From Catajapyx aquilonaris (taxonomy: Eukaryota): DNA of 32,533 nucleotides. The translations under genes and the position numbers were made by a program. The notes under the pieces were generated by a model that worked only from the letters and a program-made list of their open reading frames with translations, made no database searches and was not told the DNA's origin. Location of the stretch: assembly GCA_000934665.2 (NCBI GenBank), contig JYFJ02004385.1, positions 1-32,533 of the forward strand, in the 5' to 3' direction. Position 1 is the stretch's first letter, and the number at the start of each line of letters is the position of its first letter. Positions 1-31,391 of this stretch are shown here, one piece after another.

Positions 1-89
1 CACTAGCTATATCTGCAGGCTGTGTTGCAGTTGGCAGTAGCAGCCCTGAGTCCCTGATTTCATCAAACTTTGCTGTCAGTGTGATGAGC
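1..89 (-). CDS. CLASP: CLASP coding exon 5 (may be truncated by window edge)
   Basis: Acceptor tatctttgcag; (K)LITLTAKFDEIRDSGLLLPTATQPADIAS resembles the end of CLASP TOG1 (KFDEVQKSG). Confidence 0.88.
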
Positions 90-1120
90 CTGCAAAGATA
101 AGAACAATGAGGATTAAAATAAGGAAGGCATTCAAAGGCATATTTTAGTGACCATAAATCCTGCAGTGGCATACTCCTTTGAACATTTCCTTTGTCTTGT
201 TTATACATTCACCTCCCTTAGAAAAAGTACAGTAAGGCATTTCTGGTAGACTGATACGGCTTTAAAAAATAGGCTTCATGATAATTGCAAGTAGCTTATG
301 ACCATGGAAAGAACTTTTGCCCAAAATCATCCCAGATTTATAGCATTTTTTTTTTAATTCACAAAAAAAAATGTCAGTACATGCCCAAATTTTGTGCACA
401 GAAAGAAAAGCTGAATTTCAAAATATTCACATAAATTCCCCCATGTCCTCCCAAATGCATTATTCACCTGTGTCCTATGGTAGAACAAATTATCTACTAA
501 TTGAAACAGAACTACTGTTGCATTATTTTTCATGCATGCATTGAATTCTACAAATGTTGCACAGATTAATTACTAGTGAGAAGTGATGTATGCCTTGAAT
601 ACCATATGGGTGTGGAAAAGTAGCTTTTGTTCACAACAAAAAATAATCTTCATTTTAGATCTCATTACCTGCCAAAATGTAGATCAGGTGTGTTGCCATA
701 GATGCAACATCACTGTAACTAACATGGGACTTTTTTCTGTCTCGAATGCAAAGGCAATCCAATATTCTCTCCATTGGTCATGTAGTGGTGTCAAGTTTCA
801 CTCTGACATCCCAAGCAAAAACGCAGCACATGCAAAAACCATGTATGTTGAGCTGAGCATACCACTGCACTCCCCTTTATGCAGCCTACGTAACGGTACA
901 AACCTTGTTACTCTACAAGTCTTCGTTGCAAAGTTAGGGGCATAGTAAAACCATGTATGAATATCCTTTTCAATGGAAAGTGAAAACTTCAAATGCGCTT
1001 ATCTCGAAATGATAAAAACCACACATACAGGGTTTTTGCTTGGTACGTCAGCACTGCTCATGCAAATGTAAAAATTGTCCAAGGCCTACATGTCACCATT
1101 TAAAAATGCAAGCAACTCAC

Positions 1121-1297
1121 TTTGTAGGTGGAATATTGTGTTTCTTCTGAAGATCCACTCTCAGTCTCTCACCAACATGGCGGTAAATTTCCACTAAGGT
1201 CACTGCTGCTGCATCTCTCACAGAAGGAGCAGGATCACTCAAGAGTCGCACCAGGGAAGGCACGAGTTTTGAAAGGGACAAGGAGCTTGAGCCATGG
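1121..1297 (-). CDS. CLASP: CLASP coding exon 4
   Basis: Acceptor ttctttactacag, donor AA|GTGAGT; HGSSSLSLSKLVPSLVRLLSDPAPSVRDAAAVTLVEIYRHVGERLRVDL, with the CLASP-diagnostic LVEIYRHVGE. Confidence 0.95.
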
Positions 1298-3563
1298 CTG
1301 TAGTAAAGAAACAAGACAAATGATAAATAACAAGACCTACTGGGCGAAGTACATTATTATCTACTATTCATCTAACAAGTCAATCACAAATTCACATGTG
1401 CAGAACATACTATCCTAGGGCTTTGGAAAACCCACTTAGCCTGCATTAGTGTGAAAGAATTCTTTTTTGTACACTAAAATACAAAGTGCAAAATATTGCA
1501 CTTGGGTACAAATATCACATTTCTACAAAATATGCACACAGTACTTGAAAAACTATGGTGAAATCTCCACACTGATATGTGCAGCGCTTCATAAAATGTA
1601 GGTTGCCTGGTTTGTGGAACGCTATCCAATTTGGACTGGTACCAGCTCTGGGTGTTCCACAGCTCTAGTACACTTCCACCAGGGGACCAAAATTTCTTTT
1701 TTATACTTTGGCAGTTACTACTACAAACACACAACATAAGTCAAATTGATTTTTCTTGTAACTTGCTCAAAGGGTGTGGCACCTGACCTCATTCCTGCTT
1801 CTCAGGTAAGTATATTTAATAATCATTAATAATAATCATGACATAATCAGCTTATCCAACCATTAGCTAGTCCTTCCTAAAACTTGCAGCCATAGCAACT
1901 TGGCAGGTCCCCAATAGAGCCCCTCTATGCTTCCTGACTACTGAATAATGCACATGGCATTCTCAGTGTTGCAACATGTACTTTCTATGGCAGTTCTGAT
2001 ACTAGGCCACGTGAAGGTCCTACACACAGTCGCAGTCAGTTAATGCAGGTGGCATACAGATTTCCAATTTTACAAAGAGGATGGCAGAGAGGCAAATGGT
2101 TGCTTGTTGCTACTATTTTTACTGTGCTACATGGCATCGATATCAGTTCATTTAAAAAACATGCAGCTCAACCTGCATGCAACCAACCATGACAGAAATG
2201 TGCCTCTCTAGGTCACAAGTCCAGCACAAAATATCACACACTTACTATAGGAAATGCAGAATTATAATTTTGCACACTTCAGAAATTCTACCCCATGTCC
2301 TGTTAATTGTTTTCAAATGTAATTTATCACAAATTAATTTATAAACCTACTGTAGAACAATTCAGCCATGTGCCCTGACTTGCTCTAACAGCTCTAACAT
2401 ACGATATGCATTGCTGATTGTAGTTGCATGGCACGATATGAATAATGGAAAGTGTAGCAACAAATTGACTAATGTAAAATTGCCACAACGCTTATGCTTC
2501 ATGATGCTGTCACTTAACCACCACCAAGTTAGTTGCATTACTCTTGTTGCATCATACTTGTTGAAGAAAGCTGATTTAATTCAAGTAGTCTGTGTTACAG
2601 ATGCTCAGTCTGTAGGTACAACAGCTAATAAGTTCCTCACTTAATAATTAACTAATTAAGATGAAACAAAAGGCACCAGTGAATATATTGGAGTAGCCAA
2701 TTCTTAAAACCCGCAAAAAAACCTTCTGTACTTGTAAACTGCGTTTATGTCATAAGTCACATTATCCTCCATATGCCCGCAAAAGTTAAATTTCTGTGCC
2801 TATTTGAAATTTCAGGTTTTTTTTGTGCCTTAAAATCCGGGCTCTAGTCTTAAGTAGCGTAATATTACACATGTACCGCTAACAAGGCATGCTAAGTCAA
2901 AATAATGCATCAAGTTGTCCCCCCGGTGCAAGATGTCTTTCATGTTGAGTCCTTGAAACATTAGGACTTCCAAGGGCTAACCAGTCAACTTGGTGAAGAC
3001 ACATTGTCTCATGCATATATGTAACAGCCCGGGGGTAAAAGGCCAATAATTATTAAAGATCTATGGTCTCCATTGACAGTGGATGCAAAATTGCCCAGTG
3101 CTTCACAGATCAATAAGTACTGGCCGAAGTTTCAGTACAATCAATGACAGAAGTTATTCAAGTAATGCCTGTGCAATGTTGCAAAATATCACCTAGGAAT
3201 AGAACAAGTCATGCAACATTTCAATCCCGAACCAATACATTCTATCTGCAATTAAATACTTCTTGCCTGGCATTCAGCAAAAGGTATACAAAGACATTGC
3301 AATCAGACATATATGACCACAGAACCCAGCATTGCAAACTTGCATTATTACACGCTACTTCTCTGACCATTCAGCACTTTTCCCTATATGAAATGCATCA
3401 AATAAAATGCTTAGGACCAATTGATACTAGGCCCTATCTGGAGCAATCCAATAATATTTCACCTGCCTAATGATCGCTTACCAACAATAAACAACCAGAT
3501 GGCAGGAGAAGTTTAATCATGTTAAAATAATAGATTCTTCTTTTGAGACAACAGTAAAAACAT

Positions 3564-3626
3564 CAGCTGGGAATTGAACCCAGATCCCCTACATTGAACA
3601 GGTGTTCTGCCACTAAACCACTGCTA
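3564..3626 (-). pseudogene. Degenerate tRNA-like/SINE head
   Basis: A-box TGGTTTAGTGG and B-box GGTTCAATTCC with T-arm CTGGG/CCCAG; no intact anticodon arm. Confidence 0.5.
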
Positions 3627-3730
3627 CTTTATTGCTTATTAGCAGCAAACAATAGAAGTTTTTGGGTGACGTTTCCTAAAGATTGTCTACATTACTTCCT
3701 TGGGAATTTACGCCAGGCTATAAGGAAGGT

Positions 3731-3755
3731 CACACACACACACACACACACACAC
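3731..3755. repeat. (CA)n microsatellite
   Basis: About 12 CA units. Confidence 0.95.
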
Positions 3756-3929
3756 CCATGCAGTACAAACCTGCAAATATAATCCCACATGCATAACTTC
3801 TGAGCAGGTGTTACTACATAATTATGTGTTGCATGCCATGCACGTTTTAATTGTTATACCGTAAGAAATGACTTTAAAACACTTAAGGCAGATATACAAG
3901 GTCACAAAAATCCTCATTTGTGCTCTTAC

Positions 3930-4098
3930 TTGCTCAGTGCTGTTCTGAGACACCACATGATCTCTTCCCTAACCCTCCCATTTTTGTGTGAGAAAGCTGG
4001 TAGGAGTTTCTCAAATAGCTGTCCTGGACTTAAAACATGTTCCATGAGCGCAGATAACACAAGCTGCGCCCTTTCCCGGACCACATCCTTGGGATCAC
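3930..4098 (-). CDS. CLASP: CLASP coding exon 3
   Basis: Acceptor ctttcttcctag, donor AA|GTAAGA; 169 nt encoding GDPKDVVRERAQLVLSALMEHVLSPGQLFEKLLPAFSHKNGRVREEIMWCLRTALS; phases 1/2 fit both neighbours. Confidence 0.93.
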
Positions 4099-5287
4099 CT
4101 AGGAAGAAAGGTAAAAATTAGTCAGCATAATTCTTAAGCTTCACACAAGCACTTCCATAAGCAACAAGGAGTAATAACAATAATTCCCTAAACTATTAAG
4201 AAGTGCTATTAAGAAAATAAATATGGCAGACATTTGTGCAATCATTAAAAATACACAACGGCTTAAAACTCTAGTCCACAATGAAAATGACAGCATGAAC
4301 AGTGTCACTGCACATGGTGAAATGCTCCATTTGAAAGAAAAAGGTGCTCATCCTCATAAGGCTCAAACCATCATAGGCAGATGTTGATGGCTAATTTGTA
4401 CAGCTGAGCATTTTCGACCACAAGCTCTTTGGACCAGCTCAGAAAGTGAAGTGAAAAGGCTTAGTCATTTATCACAACTTATTCCACATGTGGTGAGTTT
4501 CTACCCTGGTATGACTTGAGGTTTATAGGCAGAACAAAAAAATTCAGAGAAGTTGCAATGCAGCATTATCTTGATCTACCTTGGGTGTAGGTGTTTATGA
4601 TGTTAGTTTATTGTTTGTTTTATTTACCACATGCTGTAGCATGGCTCCTTTGGAAAGGGAAAGCAAACAGTTTACAGGTCACATAATTTCATCCATTTAA
4701 CTATGTTCAAGAAAAAATTATGTATATTTAAAATAGTTTCTGGGTATCATAATTTCACACTTGTTTCATCTACTTGGATATGGGAGAAGGAAGCAAGAAA
4801 CACTGAGCAGGAAAGGGGGGGGGGGGGNGGGGGGACCAAAAAAAAATCGGGTACTCATACAGGAGGTGAAAGGTGTACAGTACATACACGAACCCTATTA
4901 CACCAGAACTTGATCATTGGATAAGGGAACCGCTTATCCGTAACAACAGTGAATTATTTCTAAAATTTACACGAAGCTGCAACTCTGTCAGATTTCAATG
5001 AGGTTAGCAACTGTGTACTACAAACCCCTTGTCCATGGTTGATCCAATGGTTCAATTTCCCGAATAAGCTGCCATGTAAGAAGAATTACATGCTTCCCTT
5101 CCATTTTAGCTCATTTGGAGGGGAGTGATCTTCCCACCCTCTGGTCATTGCGTGAAAACACTACCATCTGGAGGTCCCACCATGGCAAGGAAATGCCAAA
5201 AATCCTTACCATAATGGCTTGCCCTTTCCTGTGTACAGGAGCCAAGTACACAGCAGTTGCATAATTTTACTTTTCCTATTGATAATA

Positions 5288-6872: not shown

Positions 6873-6919
<47 letters not shown>
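6873..6919. repeat. (ATT)n microsatellite
   Basis: About 15 units. Confidence 0.95.
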
Positions 6920-15571: not shown

Positions 15572-15802
15572 TCAGTGGGCGAGACGATAGGGAACCCTCT
15601 CAGCCCTACCCTTCCTCCAAAGCAGGAATCCGGCCATGAGTCCTACGCCGACTCCAACCACCGCCATGGCCAAGGCGAGACCAGCCACTGCCCCCGACGT
15701 GTAGGCAGCACGCCCCAGGCGAAGACTTTTGCGACCGAGGCGGCCACCGGGGTGCAGCGCCTCCGACAAGGTCACCAACGACCCCCGCACCAGTGGTACC
15801 AT
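15572..15802 (-). CDS. LolA/EPDR-like membrane protein last exon (TM helix + short cytoplasmic tail)
   Basis: Acceptor gcctgccccag; YTSGAVAGLALAMAVVGVGVGLMAGFLLW hydrophobic span followed by basic RKGR and VPYRLAH*; candidate AATAAA signals on the minus strand near 15237 and 14967. Confidence 0.85.
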   Translation of the reverse strand: MVPLVRGSLVTLSEALHPGGRLGRKSLRLGRAAYTSGAVAGLALAMAVVGVGVGLMAGFLLWRKGRAERVPYRLAH

Positions 15803-16926
15803 CTGGGGCAGGCCACGGATGAGTGGGAGTTGATGATGGTATTATATAGAGAGAGATAAAAAAAAGGGGGGGGACAAGTAGGAAGTTTTCATTCTGGTCA
15901 TTGGATGGACAGGCTTGATTTTCCCGTAGCTGGGCCAGGTTTTTTGAATTTAGTGATGGATGAATAGTGACAGGGTGACCTTGCGTTTCAATCAGTTGTG
16001 AGAAATAATATTGGAATATTTATATTCTAGGTGGTCTTTCATGACGTGTCATTGACGGGGAGGGTAGAGATTGGGATGGAAGTCGACACAGGAAGAACGG
16101 TTTTCTCTTCCTGTCTCGCCTGACACTCTTTTAAAACAAGCGGCGCGGCGTAACGTTATGGGAAAGCACGGCTCAGGCTCTATAATAATGACTCTGCAAC
16201 TAGACGTGATGGCGATTCGGATATGAACCGGACAATTTAGCGTTACTTTCATGTAGGTGTGCGTGTTGCAGAACTATCTGAATACATAATCTGACAATAA
16301 TAATGCAAATATTGTCCCCCAATATATGCCTTGTCATGCTGATACCGTATGTTAATTTTGTCAGATATGCGCATATTATAAATAGAGTAGCTGCTGTCAA
16401 TCATATTCAGAGAGTACGTCGTCCACCTACTGTACTAGAAAACATTTCAAAACCCAAGGTTCACTTTAGAGATAGGACTGAACTGCTGAAGGGTGGCAGC
16501 GGGTGGCAGTGGGTGAGGGTAGCGGGGAAGGATGGTACACGTAGGCTACAGTATAGCTAACTTCTGAAAGTCTGTGCTGCTAAATAGACCTACTGGTCCG
16601 TTACATATACTGCATGGATTTACAGGTAGGCCCGGTTGCGTTGTAGGACGGGGTTCGGTTCCGCAAGACAGGGTCGTAGCCTATAAGATGAAAAGGCCTA
16701 CCTGCATATAAGCTCTGTCATAAAGCACCATGAGAAACAAGATTAGCGCCTATAGTATGTTTGCATTCAGAGGTGCGGTGCCGGTAGGGCCTATGTGTTT
16801 ATGTTTCGATTTATTGTTATGTCAAAAAATAAACAAATATTTCAATTTTTAAAGGTAATTTAGAAAAAGTCGTTATTGTGAAACGTCGCAAAGCAGGGCC
16901 TATCCGTAACTTATTTCAATTGTGAC

Positions 16927-17265
16927 CAGACCCGGATTTACCCCCCCCCCCCCCGGCCGCCCTTATCCGCCCCCCGGTATGCTGCTTCAAAATTCCATTT
17001 TTCTCTTGTGTTCTCTCCTATATTTCATTTCATTTCGGCAATAGTTGGACTGACTAACTTCAACACAGCATAGTTGGAACTCATTTCGGCAATTACCTTT
17101 TCTGCCTAAAGCGGTAAATCAAGTGCTCAAAAAGGTTTTTTTGTGTGTGTGTGATCTCGCCTTTATTTCTTATTATAGTATTTGAAGAGAAAAAAAAAAT
17201 TATTGTAACTCGCGGCCGCCCCTATAGGCAAGTGCCTACTGTGCCTAATGGAAAATCCGGCGCTG
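16927..17265. mobile_element. hAT-like MITE
   Basis: Imperfect TIRs CAGACCCGGATTT / CAGCGCCGGATTT and an 8-bp TSD-like pair ATTGTGAC / AACGTGAC. Confidence 0.65.
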
Positions 17266-17410
17266 AACGTGACTATAATAACTTTTTAACTGTTGTTACA
17301 TCGCGCTTGAACCATCCTTGAGAACCACAGTTTGATAAGCGTTTCTAAAGGGTGATGCAACAATGTTAAGTAGATAAATTGTTAATTTTATAATTAAATA
17401 AAACACTGAC

Positions 17411-17635
17411 CAGAAGACGTCCGGGCCCTAGCTCGAGGCGCACGGAGACGCTGTGGTGGGCCACCACGGATCGCAACAACTGGAAGGCGTCGGCTAGCGG
17501 AAGTTGAGGTGCTGGAGACTCGGATGTGGACGATCCCAATGGCGGGCGTTCCAAAAGGACGAACCAAGCCAATGATGAACCGTCTTTCTCCTCGTCGTCT
17601 ACATCGTAGCCCAAGTCATCATCGGCTCCTTGTAA
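17411..17635 (-). CDS. LolA/EPDR-like membrane protein exon 10
   Basis: Acceptor ttttgatttgtag, donor CTG|GTCAGT; LQGADDDLGYDVDDEEKDGSSLAWFVLLERPP...LADAFQLLRSVV... Confidence 0.83.
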
Positions 17636-17722
17636 CTACAAATCAAAAGTAATACAACCTGAGTGATAATGCAACATTGTTCTTACTGTAAAACTATATA
17701 TTATATTAGCACCAATACATAC

Positions 17723-17832
17723 AAAGACTCCGGTCACACGAAGTGGCGAAACACCTGCAAGTCCTGCAATGGCTCTGCGAAGAGAATCTTGAGCTGCCTC
17801 CAGACCAAACTGCACCAGATGCTCGTACGATT
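17723..17832 (-). CDS. LolA/EPDR-like membrane protein exon 9 (SEA-like juxtamembrane module)
   Basis: Acceptor ctgacttgcag, donor TTT|GTATGT; ESYEHLVQFGLEAAQDSLRRAIAGLAGVSPLRVTGVF. Confidence 0.85.
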
Positions 17833-17901
17833 CTGCAAGTCAGCAATGTGGCAGGAGACTCATATATGCTGAGGCACCATTAATTCAGGCATATGACAAA
17901 C

Positions 17902-18040
17902 CTCTCAAAGTCAAGCGCAGAAAGAGTCTCTGTGCTCTCGGAAGACAAGGTTGAATATCAAAATGGTGCCAGGCAGGATGCCCAGCGCGGTAGTGAAGAA
18001 AGTGAGTAACGGCAACCTGGGTGAAAGTCTCATCTTCTCC
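17902..18040 (-). CDS. LolA/EPDR-like membrane protein exon 8
   Basis: Acceptor cttttacag, donor G|GTTTGT; GEDETFTQVAVTHFLHYRAGHPAWHHFDIQPCLPRAQRLFLRLTLR. Confidence 0.85.
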
Positions 18041-18098
18041 CTGTAAAAGGTTCGACATCAGTTGTGTGGTGCAACAAAGAATTAGAATTATTTCTTAC

Positions 18099-18275
18099 CG
18101 GAGGTGATGAGTATGTGGCCAGTCCCAGAGGAGCTCTCTGTACTCGATTGACCCCCTCTACCTCGACGCTCCAGTTGTCATGAGAGAAGAAGAGTTCCAG
18201 AGTGGCCTTACCACCTCCGGGTTCCTTGTTCCTCTCGGACACCCACACGTCAGCCAGAACACCGCGAACTTCTCT
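18099..18275 (-). CDS. LolA/EPDR-like membrane protein exon 7
   Basis: Acceptor gtcctttcag, donor CCG|GTAAGA; REVRGVLADVWVSER...TLELFFSHDNWSVEVEG. Confidence 0.87.
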
Positions 18276-18331
18276 CTGAAAGGACATTTTCGAGTGTACG
18301 GAGAATGGTGTGCCAAGAATGCCGCACGTAC

Positions 18332-18492
18332 CATTCCCGTGTAGACAAATGAGTCGGGATCAGCTGACAAGAGCTCCTGAGCATGCCGTAAACGAACGTG
18401 ATGCGAGTCCAATGCCCAGGCATCAAGGGCAGCCGCTGGAATCCCTCCTAAAGTACAATTACCCGTGTCTTCGTTGATCTCAAACTGTAGAC
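18332..18492 (-). CDS. LolA/EPDR-like membrane protein exon 6
   Basis: Acceptor cttctgttag, donor ATG|GTACGT; LQFEINEDTGNCTLGGIP...HVRLRHAQELL...FVYTGM. Confidence 0.87.
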
Positions 18493-18556
18493 CTAACAGA
18501 AGAAAGGCGAATTCAGAAGCAATTTTCGGCACTGTAGTGTTTGCGTGTCTATTTAC

Positions 18557-18728
18557 CTGTTCTAAAATCATGTACAACACGAAGAGTATCGGCAGGCAAC
18601 GTTTGAGCGAATGGAAAAGCAGCAAAGAGCGTGGCTGGCAGGGCATGGAGATGAGGGCGCCATCGGAAAGCAGCCAGTTTCTCTCCAAAGTCAAAGTGGA
18701 ACTCTTCGTACGAGAGAGTACGTTGTCT
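18557..18728 (-). CDS. LolA/EPDR-like membrane protein exon 5
   Basis: Acceptor tttttcag, donor G|GTAAAT; RTLSYEEFHFDFGEKLAAFRW...LRVVHDFRT(G). Confidence 0.87.
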
Positions 18729-18783
18729 CTGAAAAACTACAAGCATGCAGCACATGGATTTGAAGAAGGTGCAAACGACTTAC

Positions 18784-18991
18784 AGCTGCTACGGTTTCCA
18801 TAATGACTGAGAACTGCTCTGCCAATCGGGGAAGACGTTTTCTCTGAGGCCCCAAGGGCGGACAGTAGACACCTCTTGGGGGCAGAAAGGGCGAGCCGGG
18901 TCGGTCCCATCCTCCGGCTGCACCCTCAGCCTTGCGGAAGTTCACTACAGCATACACCAGTCTCAGGTTGCCACCTAACAGGCCCAGAGTC
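18784..18991 (-). CDS. LolA/EPDR-like membrane protein exon 4
   Basis: Acceptor ttccatag, donor GCT|GTAAGT; LRLVYAVVNFRK...FLPPRGVYCPP...KRLPRLAEQFSVIMETV, the inter-repeat F-x-P-P-x-G-V-Y-C motif. Confidence 0.85.
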
Positions 18992-19056
18992 CTATGGAAC
19001 AGTCCAACGTTGTTGAACACCGTAGATGATTCATAGTAGATTCATGTGATACATAC

Positions 19057-19321
19057 CTGGCCGAACCTTCAATCGCGAAAGCCGCAGGTACCAATGAGTG
19101 TCCCTCAGCCCGGGCGAAGGTGGCTCGGACGCTGACCCCATCTCTGGTGGTCTTCCAGGACCAGAGTTCAGCTCCATCGACCCCGACCTCCTGTGCCTGG
19201 ACTCCGACGGGGTCAGCCACAAGAAATGCCAGCAAAGTGGCAGCCGGTACGAAGGAAGCACAACCTCCACTGCCGCAGAAGCAGGACTGGGGCAGCGCCG
19301 ATGACCTGTGGCATTGTATGC
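19057..19321 (-). CDS. LolA/EPDR-like membrane protein exon 3
   Basis: GIQCHRSSALPQSCFCGSGGC...WSWKTTRDGVSVRATFARAEGHSLVPAAFAIEGSA(R); donor AG|GTATGT; the acceptor (cacaaag) is weak, so the 5' boundary is less certain. Confidence 0.7.
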
Positions 19322-19402
19322 CTTTGTGGTGATGGCCAACAAATTGCGTGAATAATGCGCTGCTCATTGACACTAGATTGGCTAATGATCAAGGGAACCT
19401 AC

Positions 19403-19574
19403 CTCGTATGACGTGTCCTGTTCCGGTGGTCAGGTGGACCAGGCATGAAGTTGGTGGGTGGTGGAGAGTAGGAGGAACCAGAGTCACGGCCAGACTACTG
19501 CCTTCGCCATGTTCCAGAACGGTGAAGTAGGTACGTTGGACGGCATCCCACACTTTCAGAGTTACGTGGTAGTT
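19403..19574 (-). CDS. LolA/EPDR-like membrane protein exon 2
   Basis: Acceptor ttgttctcgtag, donor G|GTAGGT; NYHVTLKVWDAVQRTYFTVLEHGEG...TGTGHVIR, 172 nt. Confidence 0.8.
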
Positions 19575-20365
19575 CTACGAGAACAATAAGGTAATCATAA
19601 GAGCAGTATAAGGCGCGTAAGCACAGTATGACAAAATGAAGTTTAGGACAAACGTATAATTATATTCTGATGTTTACACTGTCAGCACTTTCTTGATAGT
19701 TGATGGTCGTTTAGCGCAGTCCTGTACATATTTGTCCTAAACTATGTTTATACATATATAACTACCCCATTTAGATGGTCTACACTAAATGTCCATGATA
19801 CAGATCTTGTGACCTATATATGTGCTTGTCATGGCGAGACGCATAAACTACTAGATGGAATTTGGAAATATTTACGAAGCTTCCTACCATTTCAAGAATG
19901 TAACCTGAAGACAGAGTGATGTGCTGAATGGGCTATTAATAGTAGGGGGAGAGGGGGGGGGGTCCAATATTTGAGGATGTAGTCTTCGCGTATACTGATT
20001 AACATTTGCGTATGAATAAGAAGATTGCACACTAAACTAAATGCGTTGCACAGCGATATGTACAGAGGTAGATTCACGAGCTATTGTACTATTGTAAGTT
20101 ATTTAAAATAAAACATATGAACGCGGGCCCATAATATGGACCTACTTGTAGCCTATATGAGCTGAGGTTATTGGCCTCTATAATGAGTCTTTCTGTTAGT
20201 GTTTATTAGGACTGTACTGTACTATTTGGACAATATCACCACGGACATTCTCTCACAAGACTTGTTAAGTGAAATATTATTGTTCCTGATAAATTGTGCC
20301 GATAACCATATCGCAAAAAATTAGCGTCATTGCTAGTTGATGGGATTTTTATACTGCTGCACTAA

Positions 20366-20520
20366 GGCCGGGTTCCACCGGCTCCCGGAAAGTCTGGCAG
20401 ACAAAGAGCCGGGTTACTTTATTATTCATTTTTGTCAACCATGCTGTCAACAATGAATAACAAAGTAACCCGGTTCTTTGTCGGCCAGACAAATTTTCCG
20501 GGAGCCGGTGCAACCCGGTC
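20366..20520. mobile_element. PIF/Harbinger (Tourist-like) palindromic MITE
   Basis: 155 bp, almost entirely self-complementary (GGCCGGGTTCCACCGGCTCCCGGAAA...TTTCCGGGAGCCGGTGCAACCCGGTC), TAA on both flanks. Confidence 0.85.
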
Positions 20521-21698
20521 TAATGGCGATAATGAATGGTTGATGATGACTCAGGAGTTTTTTTTCTGGCGTGTGGAGCAGCACTTCTCATCACTTGATA
20601 GAGGATAATTATGTATGACACAAGTATACGCGTCGAGGAGTCGACGATGAAGGGATGAATTACATTATAAGAGAGATGACAAAGGGGTACTAATCTACAG
20701 ACTTGTAAAATAATAATGAAAAGAGAGCACCTCGGGATTACCCGGAAACAAGAATATTGGGCGCATTGTGGACAACTGAGAATACGCAGGACGTCATTGT
20801 AATGTAGTAAAACTAATAAAACTGGTTTTATTTTAGGATTTGCACAGTAGCTTGAAATTCTGTATCATGTTAACGCTCTGAAATTAAAATTACATTTTCA
20901 TTGACGACTTTTTTTCCGTAGGCTCGCTTTGCAAATTGCCACCACAATTCTCCATATTCATGAACTCTATAGCCGGTACATTTCACATTCAGAACGGGTC
21001 CTGTACTGTACTGTACAGTACCTCCATGTGTTACACTCAGTTACAGTCTCCTCATCAACAACATAATAATAGTCCAACTTGTTTCAAGAATCAAACAATG
21101 TTGTACCCACGACTCCTTAATTATTCCCTCCAAATCAGCGCTGTAAAGGAGCTAATTGAGGCACAAAGCAGGTGACAGTAACCCTACATACTGTGGTATG
21201 ATATATGAAAACAGTTAGTTGTAAACCAGCCTAGAACAGACCATTACCTTACTTCATTACACCTGAGGCACAATAAACTCAAATAACCCGACCCCTACCA
21301 TCGATCCAGTTGACTGTAGGGAGCTCCCACTTGTCATATTCCTTCCATAATGACGCATATCATTACGACCAAGACATTTCGAGTAATTTGAGGACCACAG
21401 TGTGATTGTCGCTTTGCCATTGTGCTAAGGGTAGCCACAGGCATGCGACTATTTCCATTTTGGGAGAAAGGGCTCGCAGCAATCGAGCTTGAATGTCCTC
21501 GTCTATTTCCATCACGCCAAGTTTACCAGCATTTTTACCCCACCCCTTCTGTCGCTTCTTTTAACCACTCGGAATGTCAGGCACCTCCAAGCCAGAACTT
21601 TGATGTTTACAAACATTGCCGTGAACTTCTCTAATTGGAGGCAAACTCACTTCTAGTATGCACAAAATAGACTAGGTAGTAATTAGAAATAAAATTAC

Positions 21699-21953
21699 GG
21701 GCGGCAGTTGCGGGGGTGTGAGATCCAAGGCCGGAGGAGGAGATGTGAGCAGCGATGGGGTCAAAGGTCGAAGTGTAGCAGCTAGGGTGAAGTTGACCAT
21801 ATCTTCGTCCGGGTCGACGGTGGTGGTCAAGGGCGGCGGCGGAGAAGAGCTTACCACTGTTTCGTTGACGTATGACATGAATTCCGGTTGCCATTGTTGC
21901 AAGCAGGTGCCCATTGACACCATCACCCACAGGCTCACCACAAACGACAGCAT
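21699..21953 (-). CDS. LolA/ependymin-like type I membrane protein, coding exon 1 (signal peptide + S/T/P-rich segment)
   Basis: MLSFVVSLWVMVSMGTC hydrophobic leader, then a Thr/Ser/Pro-rich stretch with NET and NFT sequons ending PPQLPP; donor CCC|GTAATT, phase 0. Confidence 0.75.
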
Positions 21954-23524
21954 CCTGTCTCCGTTTACACCTAACCCCACCAAAATCCAGTATTATTACA
22001 GGTGTTTCTATACTTCCCCCCCAAAAAATGACATTATCAACTCAATTTTCTCATATGCGAGCAAACACCTGTCAACGGGAGTGTAAACACCCACGTTGAC
22101 TTATCTGGCACGTAATCTCATTTGAAAGCCCCCAAATCGGATCCTAGCACCTTAGGAGCAACCTGAGCCGAAACCAATTTGGCCGCCTCTCTAAGGAGCC
22201 CCTAACAGAGCCAATCACTCGCACAGTCGTGTAAAAAGAGCTTAAGTAAATAAAGAGCCTAGTGAAAATAGGAAATCACACCCAGCTCTTCTCGACACCC
22301 GCCGTCCTTCCGCCTTACTTGGGCTCCTCTAGTCTCTGGCAAGCCGATCGATCAGGTGTGCGCAGCGTTGACATGTGTACCCGCCAATAGTGGATGTTCA
22401 TCATATGTGCAAATATGGTTATGTAGTTTGGAAGATAGCTTTGAATTTGTGCTGAATTGGCGAGGGGGGGGTCTGAAAGATTATTTGTATATTTTAAAGT
22501 GATGGGAGGAGGGGCTGTATGGACCACAATCGTGGTTCTTATCGATTGACAACATCGCAGATTACGCGGGATCGGAGCCACACCCTCCCTCACCAAAATG
22601 ATGTCAAAATGACGTCCCCCTTTTAATAATTCGGCGGAGAATGCGTGGTGGATGGGGGGAAATATGGTGGTGTTTCTTTGGGGTTTTACAGCAAAATAGT
22701 GTCTGATGTTGATGGATTGAAAGATATTCAAATTCGCGCCATTGCTTAATTTGATGGCGTGCTATTTGCTCTCTGTAACTTTTCTGGAATGAAACGTTCA
22801 TTGCTGGTCTTTCAGGGCATGGGTCACCTTGCCTGCACTTGAAGAGTGCAATCCACATGGTGACATTTTTCACACAGTGTTTTAGACATCCCTATATATG
22901 AATATCCACAGGGCACATCATCTTCAAAGTGAGATACTATGTGATGATAGTATAATTATGATGCTCAAACTGTCTGTGCTGAAGACTCACTGGACTTTCT
23001 AGATTTTTTCTTCTCATTTACGCGTATATGCTTCATATTGTGCTGATGCAATATCCTGTGACCAGGTTAGGAATACCTCTGTATGGTGACCAGCTTTCGA
23101 CTACTGCCTAATGGCAAATGCCTTCGTTACTTTCCAAATGCCCCCCTTGTACTGTACAGTATCATGGTATCATACATCACATAGCAATTATACCTGGTTT
23201 GGAGGGCTTTGGTAATTACAAGATTTCTCCTTTGGGTTCATGTGGATGATGGGATTAACATGACAACTGCTTATGTTCTTGTTCAGACTATAGGACTGGG
23301 TTGTGAAATTGAACTGTAATAAGTGCAGAAGGCTGTAAAAGAGTGCCCAAAACAGTCAGCCTTACCATCCAGCTGGTGAGGGATTGTCTAATATCCATAA
23401 CTAATCATCATTCCAACAATAGAAAATAATATCTCTCTGCAATGGCTGACTTTGATGAGAAAGGGGAGATATAAGTGCATACATACCATTCCATACCTTC
23501 CAGCAGCACTCGGCATTTTCAATA

Positions 23525-25313: not shown

Positions 25314-25363
25314 TCAGCGTCCCACATTCTTGAGGAGAAGACGAAATGTTTCAGTTGATGGAT
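25314..25363 (-). CDS. TFCP2: TFCP2/gemini-like last coding exon
   Basis: Acceptor tttcttacag; (D)PSTETFRLLLKNVGR* resembles the LSF C-terminal hydrophobic-LK end; candidate AATAAA on the minus strand at 24877-24882. Confidence 0.85.
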
Positions 25364-26278
25364 CTGTAAGAAAGGTATCATAAATGTAAAACTAAACTTC
25401 TGAATGGTTATCACATATGAAGAACAAAAAAATTTGTAATGATTATGGTGAGGAGAATAAAGGAATTAAATGTAATTCTGTTTAGCATATTACATTACGA
25501 TATCTAGTAGTAGAAGGAAAGTACAAAACAGGCTGCATCACATCTCAAGTAGGATCCCACTTTTCTGACTACACAGCCATATATTTTCATGAACTACACC
25601 ATGCGTATTACAGAAGATAAATAGTGGAACAAAACATGGCCTCTGTCCTCTAACTACAGATTACAATCCGTCAGTATTTTGAAAACAATACTGAAATTAT
25701 GGAGGGCTTAGTCACTTGATACTATAGTGTACATTTCGACCAAACTTCAAGAGCTTCAGTCGGACATCAAGGACTTCATGAACTTTTTGTTCGGACTTCA
25801 CTGGACTTCAGTCTCGGTGCACGAAAGACTTCTTTAGTGACTAAACCCTCGGAAATTATACTACATGCACAGACATCTTGAGACAAAAGTACAGTGAAAC
25901 CTGTCAGCGTGCAAGTCCCTCCATTACAAGATTTGTTTTTTGGCACCGAACATGTGACCACTTGATGTGAAAAAAGTACACTCAAATTCACCACCAACAC
26001 CAGTAATAAAGATTAAGTAACAGACATGTTTTCATTAAACCCAGGGTCCATTACAGTTAGGTTTTACACTACTTAAATTCTATCATGGTCCAGCTAATGA
26101 GTTCATTTGGTATCAAATTCAGTATCACAGGAAGAAGAAAAATAATACAGTTAGGAACCACTGTTGCAAATCAAACAAGCCTGCATGCATAAACTTTTAA
26201 ATCTCAGGGTATTTTATTTCACTGCTGTAACAGTGTTATATTAGATTGCAATAACCCCAAAATACTGCACTCACTCAC

Positions 26279-26523
26279 CAGATAGCACATGGAGACAAAA
26301 CATTGATTCATTCCTCAGGTTGCGAACCACCTCGTCGGTAATGACAACATGGATCCCGGAAGGGCCCTGGACAAAGACATCTCGCACTTGAATGATGCGT
26401 ACTGCCAACAGTTGGGCCAATTTCCCCACCAGTTCACTGTACAGAGCTTGCTCCAAGTACAGTGCATGGAACACTTGGTCTGACTCCTGACATATATACA
26501 GGGTGAGAAGGGGTTCAGCAGAC
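26279..26523 (-). CDS. TFCP2: TFCP2/gemini-like C-terminal (ubiquitin-like dimerisation) exon
   Basis: LTLYICQESDQVFHALYLE...VFVQGPSGIHVVITDEVVRNL; acceptor ttttcag, donor G|GTGAGT. Confidence 0.93.
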
Positions 26524-26890
26524 CTGAAAAATTGGTTCAGCTTTTTACAATCAGAATCAACTAGAAAAAAGGGTGTATAATAAGCTTATGGCCATCTGTC
26601 CAATCCAGAGAGGAATATTTCTAAAATAATGCAACTGTATTTTCAAATATCTATATCATCACGGGGCATACAGGAGAAATCCACTGAGTAAAAAAAAATC
26701 AGTTGTGAGATAATCTAAAGTCAAGATTTGAACTTGCACTTGTTTATATGTCAGTGCATGCAGAATTATGAATTGTTAGGACTAAATGGACTTCACCAGG
26801 AAATAGTGTTGAGTCAATGCTACTTACGTGGTGTTAATAACTCAAAACTGCCAAAATTGGCCTACTGGATTTCTCCTGCATGCCAAGAGA

Positions 26891-27594
26891 CGAGGGCTGT
26901 CAATTAAATTGTAGCAACACATCTCTAGAAAAGCAGTGAAATGTAGAAAGTTTACACTGCTTATGCCACAGATAGGGTGGGTCTTGATCTAACCTCAGGA
27001 CATAATGGGATTGTCCTACCTCAATATGCGTATGAGCAGTAAAGAGTATACTGTGAGCTGTTGCGATCAACAGGTCTAAAGGTGATGTTTTCCAAATTTG
27101 AGCAAAGGTGCTGTTAAAAATTGAAAATTTGTCATGAAATGCTTTTACAGGCTTGTGGGGAACATGCATTGCTATATAGAACGATTGCAAGGTGGGCAAA
27201 AGCCTTCTGTCAGAGAAGGCAAAACGTGACATATGAGCCCCATCCAAATGCAAGTGAGGAGCAAGTGGCTGCTGTTTCCGCATTGATGGAGAACGATCGG
27301 AGGTAGACAGTTCGTGAGTTAGCCAGTGAGACAGGCTCATCGAGTATGACTATCCTGAACATTCTCAAGAAACGTCTGGGTATGACTATCACAGACCTTC
27401 GCGCTTTTGACCGCTCTATACGAAACAACAACCAACCAAGGGCTGCCAACGGCATCCTTAGACTTCCACATCGCTAATGACGGGTGTTACACAATGCTGG
27501 TGACTACAATGAAGGACTCTGAAAGTTTGAAGCTGCCATGTATTTCCAGTCCCAAGTAATTAAATAGTTGCCACTATTTTATTTACAGCCCTCG
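26891..27594 (+). mobile_element. Internally deleted mariner element with transposase remnant
   Basis: TIRs CGAGGGCTGT(C/A)AAT(T/A)AAAT; remnant CHEMLLQACGEHALLYRTIARWAKAF...ENDRR*TVRELASETG (mariner HTH region) joined to C-terminal GILRLPHR...VLHNAGDY; stops present, catalytic core missing. Confidence 0.9.
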
Positions 27595-27760
27595 TATAAT
27601 CCTCAGGGATGTCAGGAGTGTTTATTGTCCAAGCATTCTTTGATGCAAGGCAGAAAACTTTCAGTGTCACAATTACCCCTTATGCTTTTGCCAAAGTGCA
27701 ACATGCTGATTTCTATGCCTGTTGCAATTGATCTAATCAGTACTTGTAGTATATACTCAC

Positions 27761-28108
27761 TTGCTGTGAAGTGCATTGTATAGCCGGATACCATCAGGTA
27801 GCCCACATATTTGTACAAGGTCTTCCCTAGTCAGACGCAGGAGGTCTGAGCCAGAGAAGTTGGCAAAGGTGCGACAGTAGGCCCCAAAGCGATTTGTCTG
27901 CAGCCAAATGGCCGTGTCTGAAGCGCTTGTGTCCGACTGCAAGAAGAGGTGCTTTCCAGGACCCACCTCAGTCTGGGAGTGGGAGTGCGAAAGGGAGTAA
28001 TGTGACGAAAGGTGGTAGGTGCTCACACGACCATCAGGTGAATCTTGCTCTGCTCCGTTGGGGCTCTCTTGCCCAACTAATCCGGCTGCTGACACAGCCA
28101 CAGGGACA
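27761..28108 (-). CDS. TFCP2: TFCP2/gemini-like SAM-domain exon
   Basis: WLQTNRFGAYCRTFANFSGSDLLRLTREDLVQICGLPDGIRLYNALHSK, the LSF-subfamily SAM motif; acceptor tacctcag, donor AA|GTGAGT. Confidence 0.95.
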
Positions 28109-28384
28109 CTGAGGTACAAAAAGTTAAGTTACTGTGATGACAATGAAAAAGGCACATTAAAAACCCTTAAAAAATAAAAGCTCAATTTGGAATCTTTCAA
28201 CATGAACATACTTTTTGGTAATACAATATTAATATAGATGATAATAATAATAATAGATAAGATTAATTACAGTTGTGCCCTTGGTAAGCTGTGCACTACA
28301 AAATAGTATTTTCCAAGGATCAATTATAACCTACAGCTGGGCAGATGTCAATGGCTTTAACTAGAGGAGAGATGGTTGACAAAC

Positions 28385-28599
28385 CTGGGCTCCTGCTGCA
28401 CTAGAAAACCTCCATTCATGCCACCTCCTCCGCTTCCCCCAACATTACTTCCAGCGCTTGTCACGACACTATTAGCTCCTCCTCCACCCCCTCCTCCACT
28501 TCCGTTTCCTCCTGCAGAAGTTCCCCCAGCTGCCGACGTTGGTGCAATAGCAGCCATAGTGACTGGCATTGTCCCAGTGTAGACTGCATCTAATGGGAG
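28385..28599 (-). CDS. TFCP2: TFCP2/gemini-like Gly-rich linker exon
   Basis: Acceptor ctgttccag after a 63-nt intron, donor AG|GTTTGT; LPLDAVY...GGGGGGGANS...QQEP; phases fit both neighbours. Confidence 0.82.
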
Positions 28600-28662
28600 C
28601 TGGAACAGCAAGGAAAATTTTTAATTCACTTTCTCTTCATTGATTTGGTCATACAAACTTAC

Positions 28663-29139
28663 ATCTGTGAGAATAGTGCAATGGCATGATGGCTGATACT
28701 TTTGAAACTCCGAAGGAGGACGCTTCATGATCTTCTCACGATCCTGCTTATGTTTACGGTCAGCTCCCTTCAGCTTAAAAACCTTAACCTGGCAAGCTCC
28801 AGCATGCAGTCTCCGCTGTGGATGCCTCTCCGTGGCCTGTGAGTAAGTTTCCACCTGGATACGGAATGGCACACCTTTTTCTCCTCCGTGTTTCTTTGGG
28901 GTGAATTCAGTGCTGATACAGTTCACCCGGATGTACACCCCAACTTCCTTAATGGGGTCCCAGGAGAATTCAACCAGGTTCAACTGTGTAGGATCTTGAT
29001 ACACATCAAAGAGGCCATATGACAGGGGTAGATCCACCTCTAGGATTCGGTCTCCTGGTCGACTTTGCTGCCACGCCAGCAGTTGCTCTCGCTCAGTGTA
29101 CTGCAAGCGGCGCTCATGAAAGCAAACCCGCACCACTGA
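28663..29139 (-). CDS. TFCP2: TFCP2/gemini-like CP2 DNA-binding domain exon
   Basis: FHERRLQYTEREQL...VNCISTEFTPKKHGGEKGVPFRIQVET...CQVKVFKLKGADRKHKQDREK; 477 nt, phase 0/0, donor GAT|GTAAGT. Confidence 0.97.
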
Positions 29140-30358
29140 CTGCAGAGAAGAAGTGGGTTTCAAGTTTAGGCAGAGGATAAACCATGCAGTTCAACAGCCT
29201 TAGTAGAAAGGCCACGTTTAAATTTTCTACACATATCTAGTACACAGGATGGTGCCAAATAGAGAAGAAGACTAATGGTATATCCTAAACAAGTCATTGA
29301 CACATGTTATTCACATAAGCTCAATCACTGGTTTTGGATTTATCAACCACACCCTAAAGCACATGTGGTTGAAAACATGCTCTTGTCAATATCTTCATAC
29401 ATGAATCTATGTAACCTCTTGGCACAATATCTCCAGTACAGTGTTGGACATTTATCGAGGCATACTGCTAGCGACATTTTCTGAAGCGGCAGAAGGAATC
29501 TTGGTCCAACACTGTACAATACAAAAATCATTGTATGGGCTCATGTTTTCTCAAATCTCCAATGCTATCCAGCCTAAATGCAAAAGGCCAGATATTTACA
29601 AATTTCCTGAGAAAATGTGAGATTTTCTCCTCACAACATGGCCACATCTCGACGTAATACATAATGTATGTATTTGTGCTTGGATAGATATGAACAGGAG
29701 TGCACATTGTGCACCAGGCTGGTAGCAAGGGGCACAGGCACATTTGGGCTGACCACACCCAAACAGGGGTGAAAGAGAGAGGGCTAAGTTCAGTCTGGCT
29801 TGGCCAGTAAGGTAGAGAGTGTTGCAAGGTGCCCAAAGAAGAAATGAGGACATTGTTATTGTAGATTGGCAACTTGTGACGAGCTCATACAACATATGCC
29901 AAACTGTGCCTAACACTTTCTAATTTGTAATTAACCAACTTGCACTTTAATAGCTGCATTTAAATGAAAGTCATGTAATGACCTTGCGGAGAGCACTGTG
30001 ACCCTGCGGCCTACAGATCCAGTACCTCATTTTCCTCATGTTGCGATTAAAAGTCATAAAAAATGGTATCAGAAAACTTCTGACCAGATCTGTGCTAATA
30101 CATATACTATGATCAAACACAAAACCAATATGGATATTTTAAGACCAAACTAATTAAACACCATGCATGGCAAGTTGCCATTCAACAGATCTTGGAAATA
30201 ATATGCAGATTTGGTAGAAAAGTGATTAGTTAGAGATGTATTCTCGCTCTTCCTACAAAACATACAACTCGCCTGAAGTTGCCCAAATGACACTAAGGAA
30301 CAAATTGCAAATGCAATGAGCACTGTCATAAGAGGCATGGCTTGCTGTACTTGTACGC

Positions 30359-30429
30359 TGCCCCTGCCAGGAATCGAACCTGGGTCCACACTCACAAGAG
30401 TGTTTGCTCTGCCACTGAGCTACAAGGGT
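30359..30429 (-). pseudogene. tRNA-like pseudogene (Thr-TGT-like) or isolated SINE head
   Basis: ACCCTTG/CAGGGGC acceptor, GCTC/GAGC D-arm, CCAGG-TTCGATT-CCTGG T-arm; anticodon arm ACACT-CTTGTG-AGTGT has only a 6-nt loop. Confidence 0.6.
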
Positions 30430-30540
30430 ATAGATATGTACAGGTCTACCACATCTCAATAAAATAGGACCACAACTCTGATGATTCCTCATCACACCTA
30501 CGAAACTGACCACTACTTAATTTGGAAATTAGGAAGAACC

Positions 30541-30824
30541 AGGCCGGGTTCGATCCCCGCCCGGGAGTTCCCTTTCGCCTGCGTCAGGGGGTCTCTGACC
30601 CGCGCCTTGGAGGCATCTGGCAACCTAACCTCCTGGGGGATTGCACATGACCCATTTTCAGACATTGCACCTGCACCTATGTTCCCTCCCCAAAAATCCC
30701 CATCCTTACCCCATGTCCTTCCTTGCATGGAGTATGAAGAAAAATCCGAAAATTGAATGGAAATATGGTGGTGCTCCATCCCCCTAAGAGGGCCCTATCA
30801 CGGGGTAATACACAAAAAAAAAAA
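30541..30824 (+). mobile_element. 5'-truncated SINE of the 11364 family
   Basis: GGTTCGATCCCC...CCGGGAGTTCCCTTTC...CTGGCAACCTAACCTCCTGGGGGA matches the reverse complement of 11364-11705; ends ATCACGGGGTAATACAC(A)n. Confidence 0.88.
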
Positions 30825-31146
30825 CTCTCTCTCTTGACCACATAAAAAAATCAGTCGTAATTTGTTTTGACTCGCCCTCACATATTCAGCCTAATACGTA
30901 TTAACAGTAAATATTTTAATAACTATGACAAGTAACTGATTAATCAGCACCATATAATGAGGTTTGAAATAAATAAAATAAGTAGCTTGGCGGAATAAAT
31001 AAGGTAACTAAAACAGACACCTCCATTGCAACACACATCTATGAGGGCTTATCAAGAGCAATAGGCCTCATAAAGCAATGTGATTGACCATTTCATACCA
31101 TTCATTAATGTGCCTCAAGTTCGGGATGTGAAGTGCCCTTCCTCAC

Positions 31147-31291
31147 CTTAACAACTTTGCCCCTGAAGGCAGAGAGTTCACCCAACTTCTTCAACTTGAT
31201 TTCATAAGATTGACCTTGGTTCAAATAGGTCAACGTCTCCTCATTCATCTTGCAGGCCACTGAGGTTGCTGCAGCAAGGACGTACTGGAAT
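31147..31291 (-). CDS. TFCP2: TFCP2/gemini-like CP2 DNA-binding domain exon
   Basis: FQYVLAAATSVACKMNEETLTYLNQGQSYEIKLKKLG, the LSF/CP2 signature; acceptor ccttccag, donor AAG|GTGAGG. Confidence 0.96.
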
Positions 31292-31391
31292 CTGGAAGGA
31301 GATGCTTTGTCAGAAGCAGTCTTATATGTAGATAGACTACGGTACACAAATCTATGTAACAATATTAATCTGCCAGCAATCAGCAACTTGC

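Follow-up and report, generated by a model that had tools for sequence, protein, structure and literature searches.

A predicted membrane-anchored protein with two LolA/ependymin-like domains, encoded by eleven exons in Catajapyx aquilonaris

We analyzed a 32,533-nucleotide stretch of DNA from Catajapyx aquilonaris (contig JYFJ02004385.1, assembly GCA_000934665.2; hereafter the window, numbered on its forward strand), in which a minus-strand gene of 11 exons runs from 21953 to 15572 and is predicted to encode a 704-residue, membrane-anchored protein. Judged by its sequence, the gene is real, intact and of arthropod origin, and its product belongs to an invertebrate family that is already catalogued in Pfam by the pair PF25898 and PF25899. 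According to the structural model of an ortholog, two successive domains of the protein have the LolA fold that is shared with ependymin-related proteins (EPDRs), followed by a domain that looks SEA-like, a single transmembrane (TM) helix and a short tail. This architecture suggests a membrane-tethered binder of a hydrophobic ligand, serving capture or transfer, a proposal that in our judgment has about an even chance of being right.

An intact gene of eleven exons

A preliminary description of this DNA had proposed 11 phase-consistent exons totaling 2115 nt with no internal stop, and three-frame reading combined with junction mapping bore this out exactly. The spliced coding sequence is 2115 nt long, comprising 704 codons and a TGA, and contains no internal stop. 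All ten introns have GT..AG borders, and their phases, in order, are 0,1,2,0,1,0,0,1,0,0. Eight of them measure 55–87 nt, the first being 2124 nt and the last 1608 nt long, and GC content is 0.50–0.65 in the exons versus 0.28–0.50 in the introns. The exons are listed below, with structural features as predicted.

Exon 1, 21699..21953, minus strand: residues 1–85; start codon, likely signal peptide (about residues 1–18), S/T/P-rich low-complexity segment, opening of domain 1.
Exon 2, 19403..19574, minus strand: residues 86–142; strands 1–5 of LolA/EPDR-fold domain 1; 47% identity to Cloeon.
Exon 3, 19057..19321, minus strand: residues 143–230; sixth strand of domain 1 with C146, CFC..C cluster (about 19283–19260), lid helix.
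Exon 4, 18784..18991, minus strand: residues 231–300; end of domain 1 with PPRGVYC (about 18882–18862, C274), linker, strand 1 of domain 2.
Exon 5, 18557..18728, minus strand: residues 301–357; domain 2, with an invariant HDF motif.
Exon 6, 18332..18492, minus strand: residues 358–411; domain 2, GNCT (C370; the N369 glycosylation sequon is conserved).
Exon 7, 18099..18275, minus strand: residues 412–470; domain 2.
Exon 8, 17902..18040, minus strand: residues 471–516; end of domain 2 (C502), start of the SEA-like domain.
Exon 9, 17723..17832, minus strand: residues 517–553; SEA-like domain with GVSPLRV; highest conservation among the exons, 72% to Cloeon.
Exon 10, 17411..17635, minus strand: residues 554–628; SEA-like domain, 11-residue acidic loop insertion.
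Exon 11, 15572..15802, minus strand: residues 629–704; end of the SEA-like domain, basic juxtamembrane patch, TM helix (about 15697–15614) with G-xxx-G-xxx-G, short P-Y tail, stop.

With exon 6 as the only query, phmmer found 22 proteins, namely five long homologs, 14 short database fragments and three unrelated repetitive proteins (P0001, P0016 and P0019), the last of which were dropped because they gave no alignment to the gene model. In 9 of the 14 fragments, which had been picked using exon 6 as query, the match ends at residue 410–411, the position of the exon 6 donor, and is followed by Val (a GTN codon); two further fragments show the same G-x-V pattern at this donor. These fragments run past the donor like genomic read-through into a GT intron, so that the intron position is apparently common to other species.

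We discarded a shorter exon 10, which would begin after an in-frame AG (17590 or 17587), because no pyrimidine tract is present there and a similar loop insertion occurs in Hetaerina. At the 5′ end (21954–21960), an AG lies one base 5′ of the ATG, together with a weak pyrimidine tract, and the first residues include no basic amino acid; given this AG and these residues, an additional upstream exon is possible.

Orthologs and membership in a catalogued family

Cluster look-up of the exon 6 matches led to proteins of mayflies (Cloeon LOC135939337 and Neocloeon), penaeid shrimp and a millipede (Chamberlinius), and searches with the Cloeon protein and with the alignment added Ephemera, Hetaerina, Ladona, lobster, crayfish, crabs, an isopod, a stomatopod and an amphipod. 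Full-length orthologs come from mayflies, odonates, malacostracan crustaceans and one millipede, and every named one is annotated as "uncharacterized" or "hypothetical". BLASTP of the spliced model aligned residues 76–702 at E = 0 with Neocloeon (49.7% identity), Ephemera (50.7%) and Cloeon (48.9%); identity is 37–42% for most malacostracans and 35% for the millipede. Exons 2–11 are each 36–72% identical to Cloeon, exon 1 being the weakest at 23%, with an N-terminus that resembles the mayfly ortholog's. When the orthologs were compared with the raw window by tblastn, exons 2–11 were matched in order and exon 1 remained unmatched. One annotation of Cloeon seems to present the ortholog gene as two separate proteins, 266 and 400 residues long, which shows how easily this gene is mis-modeled.

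In a midpoint-rooted tree of 21 rows, mayflies plus odonates form the sister group of the model (100/99), which sits on a long terminal branch (1.08) and has its composition flagged; by this tree the gene is insect-like. The branch length and the composition bias would also suit a decaying or mis-assembled gene model, that is, a pseudogene or exons spliced otherwise, as would the lack of two cysteines, at positions 419 and 680, that 18 of 21 orthologs have (counts over 21 orthologs leave out two N-terminally truncated proteins and include near-duplicates) and the reading of the exon chain from genomic sequence alone. We find this explanation barely credible, as the frame is open over 11 exons with canonical splice sites, all eight ectodomain cysteines are retained, an intron position is conserved and a hidden Markov model (HMM) of 22 orthologs scores the spliced model at 703 bits over its full length.

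Precomputed Pfam assignments place PF25898 (LolA_2nd_metazoa) and PF25899 (DUF7959) on 15 of the 15 matches listed for the Cloeon search and on 7 of 8 in the alignment search. Both families are likewise carried by the top three ESM Atlas clusters for the Cloeon protein (score 0.95, 204–211 shared features), which have 131, 227 and 69 members, mostly from molluscs and nematodes. Because a truncated Ladona protein beginning within domain 2 carries both families and the 266-residue Cloeon piece, probably the N-terminal part, carries neither, PF25898 and PF25899 correspond to the second and third domains. Among the matches listed, domain 1 seems to have no Pfam family in these arthropod proteins. 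A Pfam scan of the 11 single exons gave four weak matches, none near the cut-off; PF25898 and PF25899 were not returned even for the orthologs, so their models are seemingly absent from the scanned release. Exon 4 found no match among 93 candidates in a word-based search and no usable match in ESM Atlas.

The layout of the PF25898 + PF25899 family, with a signal peptide, one or more LolA-like domains, a C-terminal domain, a single TM helix and a short tail, is also that of the spliced protein as judged by hydropathy, alignment and the ortholog model, and on these features and its full-length homology the protein belongs to this already catalogued invertebrate family. It had initially been called uncharacterized; no characterized ortholog turned up, but the family is already in Pfam, and since PF25898 is named LolA-like there, the link to this fold is not new. 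Literature searches, mostly of open-access text, found no paper on the family. Named insect orthologs among the matches listed are only from mayflies or odonates (4 of 15 in the Cloeon search, plus Neocloeon), with no neopteran seen. The Cloeon search covered at most 8000 candidates, so that loss of the gene from most insects is possible and for now just a lead. Some chelicerate relatives apparently bear the label "antigen B membrane protein", which goes back to an antigen used in tick vaccines. The same label is listed in spider venom vesicles in the part of PMC8402349 consulted; its link to the family is tentative and was not used here.

Two domains with a predicted LolA/EPDR fold

The fold was read from an AlphaFold model of the Cloeon ortholog, computed with a 22-sequence alignment, and the domain positions were transferred to the window protein by alignment. 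The model has a mean predicted local distance difference test (pLDDT) score of 70 and a predicted template modeling (pTM) score of 0.58, and its first 104 residues are disordered except for the signal helix. It delimits three domains.

LolA/EPDR-fold domain 1 (predicted), 18853..21716, minus strand: residues about 80–277, exons 1–4; from Cloeon model residues 104–313.
LolA/EPDR-fold domain 2 (predicted), 17942..18843, minus strand: residues about 281–503; probably PF25898; from Cloeon model residues 317–548.
SEA-like (ferredoxin-like) domain (predicted), 15758..17932, minus strand: residues about 507–643; probably PF25899 (DUF7959); from Cloeon model residues about 546–673.

Foldseek with the Cloeon model returned EPDR structures in all of its best 11 rows, with EPD-BCP1 at the top (E 4.6e-7); EPD-BCP1 and frog, human and mouse EPDR1 ranked first and bacterial LolA next. 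VIA-align of Cloeon residues 104–313 gave Z 12.7 for 4mxt (root-mean-square deviation 3.5, 166 aligned) and Z 11.6 for frog EPDR1 (6lxx), and residues 317–548 gave Z 11.7 for human EPDR1 (6e7o; root-mean-square deviation 3.9, 161 aligned) and Z 11.0 for EPD-BCP1 (8i34). On this modeling, both domains have the LolA/EPDR fold that the preliminary description had proposed. A sequence search of the PDB with P0044 yielded only three chance-level matches.

Each domain of the Cloeon model has 11 predicted strands, with a cysteine where the sixth strand begins and another following the eleventh. The corresponding pairs, C146/C274 in domain 1 and C370/C502 in domain 2, have all four cysteines in 21 of 21 orthologs, and in both domains their positions match the C113/C210 pair that forms the beta6-L12 link of EPDR1 (PMC6363788, partial text), pointing to a putative disulfide in each. 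The extra CFCGSGGC cysteine cluster described for the first repeat also holds up, the four additional cysteines of domain 1 being present in 20–21 of the 21 orthologs. As had been stated, this domain is the more diverged of the two, with a mean identity to the 21 orthologs of 31.5% versus 46.7% for domain 2.

The earlier picture of two repeats, each opening with P/R-x-L-P-x(2-5)-[YF], stands in part: two domains are there by structure, but the pattern [PR]-x-L-P-x(2-5)-[YF], which matches at 81, 265, 501 and 596, is absent from the start of domain 2. HHalign of one domain against the other aligned only a 16-column opening segment (probability 4.4%), and the term "two repeats" therefore rests on structure rather than on sequence; BLAST of the protein against itself found nothing meaningful that would indicate internal duplication. 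Intron positions differ between the two domains, so any duplication would be old. The motifs quoted for the second repeat are all present, but PPRGVYC (residues 268–274) closes domain 1; with domain borders mapped from the model, it forms the last loop of that domain, the counterpart of FDIQPC in domain 2.

An SEA-like domain, a transmembrane helix and a short tail

The GVSPLRV motif of a third, previously unassigned module is present, and the module is now read as SEA-like. VIA-align of Cloeon residues about 546–673 gave Z 8.9 for SorCS2, 8.4 for Trop2 and 8.0 for MUC16 SEA5, RRM/UHM domains reach Z 6.7–7.3 against the same region, and the orthologs scanned had no match to Pfam SEA. With SEA scores only slightly above those of RRM domains, "SEA-like" is the fair label. 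Invariant positions number 13 of 137 residues in this domain and 29 of 223 in domain 2.

Self-cleaving SEA domains carry a G-S-V-V-V motif in the beta2-beta3 loop. In its place, the orthologs mostly have G-E-V-[DA]-V-W, and in the window protein a long acidic insertion precedes G-S-S-L-A-W; since most orthologs have G-E at the cleavage position, self-cleavage is unlikely as a family trait. The insertion, 11 residues long, lies in exon 10 (17635–17560) and ends in G-S.

The ends of the protein agree with what had been proposed for them. The N-terminus is hydrophobic (19-residue Kyte-Doolittle mean 1.65), and hydropathy together with the ortholog alignment makes a signal peptide at about residues 1–18 likely, followed by an S/T/P-rich segment (52% of residues 34–85). 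A single TM hydropathy peak (2.33) stands near the C-terminus, leaving a tail of 13–14 residues, as against the one helix and tail of about 14 residues described earlier. A hydrophobic stretch starting at 160–165 was rejected as a second TM helix, as it falls on a short helix within domain 1. In the G-xxx-G-xxx-G pattern of the TM helix, G678 is found in 21 of 21 orthologs and G682 and G686 in 20 of 21; the P-Y of the tail is also conserved, with Y700 in 18 of 21.

A proposed hydrophobic-ligand binder and its alternatives

Taken together, these features would describe a type I membrane glycoprotein with a signal peptide, a mucin-like N-terminal segment, two LolA/EPDR-fold domains, an SEA-like spacer, one TM helix and a short tail, which would enter the secretory pathway and be exposed at the cell surface or inside endosomes or lysosomes. 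A disulfide between the sixth strand and the last loop, as is typical of EPDRs, probably holds each of the two LolA/EPDR-fold domains together, and in domain 1 the lid loop is probably fixed by two further disulfides among C129, C156, C158 and C163. A hydrophobic ligand (a glycolipid, lipoprotein lipid, sterol or carotenoid) may bind to the concave sheets or at the interface of the two domains and be kept near the membrane, either for uptake or for transfer to an enzyme or carrier protein. The SEA-like domain would serve as a non-cleaved spacer, the conserved glycine pattern may dimerize the protein through its TM helix, and the tyrosine conserved in the tail may serve as a trafficking signal. 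The tandem domains in one chain could mimic a dimer of the EPDR1/EPD-BCP1 type. We infer lipid capture or transfer from the fold alone.

Several observations weigh against this proposal. The HMM of 22 orthologs found no match among PDB sequences, and identity to every LolA/EPDR structure matched is at most 16%. VioE, an enzyme, and RseB match within 1 Z of the EPDR structures; RseB is a protein-binding sensor, and the similar scores of these two proteins indicate that the fold is functionally plastic. Because the model is that of an ortholog and several loops of domain 2 have pLDDT below 50, the pockets and the packing of the domains are uncertain. EPDR1 R77, a conserved polar residue, has no obvious equivalent by positional guess, the tail contains no canonical YxxPhi or lysosomal motif, and literature searches found no ligand, expression or localization data for any family member.

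Somewhat unlikely, in our estimate, is a surface adhesion or protein-recognition molecule of the glycocalyx or apical-matrix type, whose LolA-fold domains would bind a protein or glycan partner. Its mucin-like segment, SEA-like domain and single TM helix would recall mucins, Trop2 and SorCS2, which are among the structural matches of the third domain, and the LolA fold is shared by RseB/MucB. Related ESM Atlas clusters, moreover, fuse PF25898 to PAN/apple domains, which bind proteins and glycans, in proteins of 870–1430 residues (scores 0.83–0.85, leads only). The best Foldseek matches, however, are EPDRs, the closest solved structures bind lipids or carotenoids, and the tail is too short for most signaling roles.

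The protein could also assist digestive or lysosomal hydrolases (a glycosidase, lipase or cathepsin) as a membrane-bound cofactor that presents substrate or regulates the enzyme and transports no cargo. We think this improbable: the window protein has no protease or hydrolase domain, the neighboring genes encode a CP2 transcription factor and a CLASP-like protein, and the tail shows no clear lysosomal sorting motif, even though EPDR1 acts on neuraminidases, stimulating NEU3 and inhibiting NEU4, and the survey of PMC6363788 (partial text) lists no arthropod EPDR-fold proteins other than cathepsin fusions.

Within the preferred reading of a hydrophobic-ligand binder, a bolder version is a long shot: the two domains would fold together as a single-chain heterodimer like EPD-BCP1, forming a membrane receptor for the uptake of carotenoids or other dietary lipids that persisted in crustaceans, myriapods and early-branching insects but disappeared from most other insects. 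If so, it would be the first case of the ependymin fold making up a membrane receptor, and in crustaceans a candidate for taking up carotenoids or sterols. Binding of dietary lipids or carotenoids would in itself matter for crustacean nutrition and pigmentation.

Neighboring features in the window

Directly upstream, on the same (minus) strand at about 25314–31300, lies a gene for a CP2/gemini-type transcription factor with CP2 (E 4.6e-42), SAM_3 and GRHL1_C domains in three exons; its 5′ part may extend past the window, and its last small exon is tentatively placed near 25314–25362. Downstream, at about 1–4100 on the minus strand, are exons of a CLASP-like HEAT-repeat gene that continues past the window start (HEAT E 4.5e-7; CLASP_N E 7.5e-5, which fails the curated cut-off). 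These flanking genes give no hint of function. Two tRNA-like elements on the minus strand, at 3558–3628 and 30357–30430, lie in introns (ARAGORN, Leu(CAA) and an undetermined anticodon; Rfam, 38.9 and 47.2 bits) and are probably tRNA-derived repeats or pseudogenes. The window also contains an (AAT)n microsatellite at 6873–6919 and a single N in a G/C homopolymer run at about 4829.

Comparison with orthologs, ependymin-related proteins and bacterial LolA-fold proteins

The gene is an ordinary ortholog of publicly predicted proteins, from a family that Pfam already describes as LolA-like. Our analysis adds that domain 1, without a Pfam family in these arthropods, is predicted to have the LolA/EPDR fold as well, that the DUF7959 region looks SEA-like in the model, and that the nearest solved structures are ependymin-related binders of lipids and carotenoids. 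Compared with its PF25898 + PF25899 orthologs (Cloeon LOC135939337, Ephemera danica B566_EDAN011378 and Penaeus vannamei LOC113822915), the window protein is collinear over its full length and has the same domain order, cysteines, TM helix and tail. It differs in an S/T/P segment shorter than that of the insect orthologs, in the acidic insertion of the SEA-like loop, of which Hetaerina has a similar one, and in the two absent cysteines at positions 419 and 680.

EPDRs are strictly defined in PMC6280359 (partial text) by PF00811 at E 1e-5, three shared cysteines and a secreted single domain of about 213 residues. PF00811 (Ependymin) matched weakly in 10 of 22 orthologs, with a best E of 0.024 that falls short of 1e-5, and gave no match in the scan of the 11 single exons. 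By strand order and aligned ranges, both domains have the central and C-terminal cysteines and neither has one before or at its first strand; in size and architecture, a protein of 704 residues with two domains and a TM anchor contrasts with a single domain of about 213. The broader description in PMC6363788 (partial text), a signal sequence plus the beta6-L12 cysteine pair, fits the protein, with the pair in both domains and the bond predicted. The protein thus resembles a membrane-tethered EPDR but lies outside the PMC6280359 definition.

The survey in PMC6280359, as far as its partial text goes, reports no EPDRs in ecdysozoans, and the part of PMC6363788 consulted gives one EPDR + cathepsin protein each for Drosophila and Anopheles and none for C. 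elegans. With only these cathepsin fusions in two insects on record there, the present family appears to be a second arthropod branch of the fold, one that is anchored in the membrane. The same part of PMC6363788 describes a "Basal-2" group that includes multi-domain members (62 domains in 36 proteins) and does not contain the word "transmembrane".

Vertebrate EPDR1/MERP (6e7o, 6e8n, 6jla and 6lxx) shares with the window protein an 11-stranded LolA-type sheet (Z 11.0–11.7), a signal peptide and, by position, the beta6-L12 cysteine pair, and EPDR1 binds BMP/GM1 (anionic-lipid) liposomes at acid pH (PMC6363788, partial text). EPDR1 is, however, a soluble single-domain homodimer, whereas the window protein combines two domains in one chain with an SEA-like domain and a TM anchor, is 11–16% identical to it, has no cysteine at the C42 position and carries a separate cysteine cluster in domain 1. 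The sponge blue carotenoprotein EPD-BCP1 (8i34), the top Foldseek match, aligns with both domains (Z 11.0–11.1) and pairs two different EPD subunits, with two carotenoids bound between them (PMC10470211, partial text), a pairing that the tandem protein might achieve within one chain. Unlike the window protein, EPD-BCP1 is a soluble two-chain dimer with known ligands and with neither a TM helix nor an SEA-like domain.

The EPDR + cathepsin clade (Drosophila Q9V3U6 and Anopheles Q7QL68; PMC6363788, partial text) is likewise arthropod, with an EPDR-fold domain and a signal peptide; its members fuse one EPDR domain to a papain-family protease and have no TM helix, in contrast to the window protein with its TM anchor and no protease domain. 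Bacterial LolA/LolB, LprG/LprF/LppX, RseB/MucB and VioE have the same fold (Z 8–12.7) at no more than 13% identity, and their functions range from lipoprotein carriage to catalysis.

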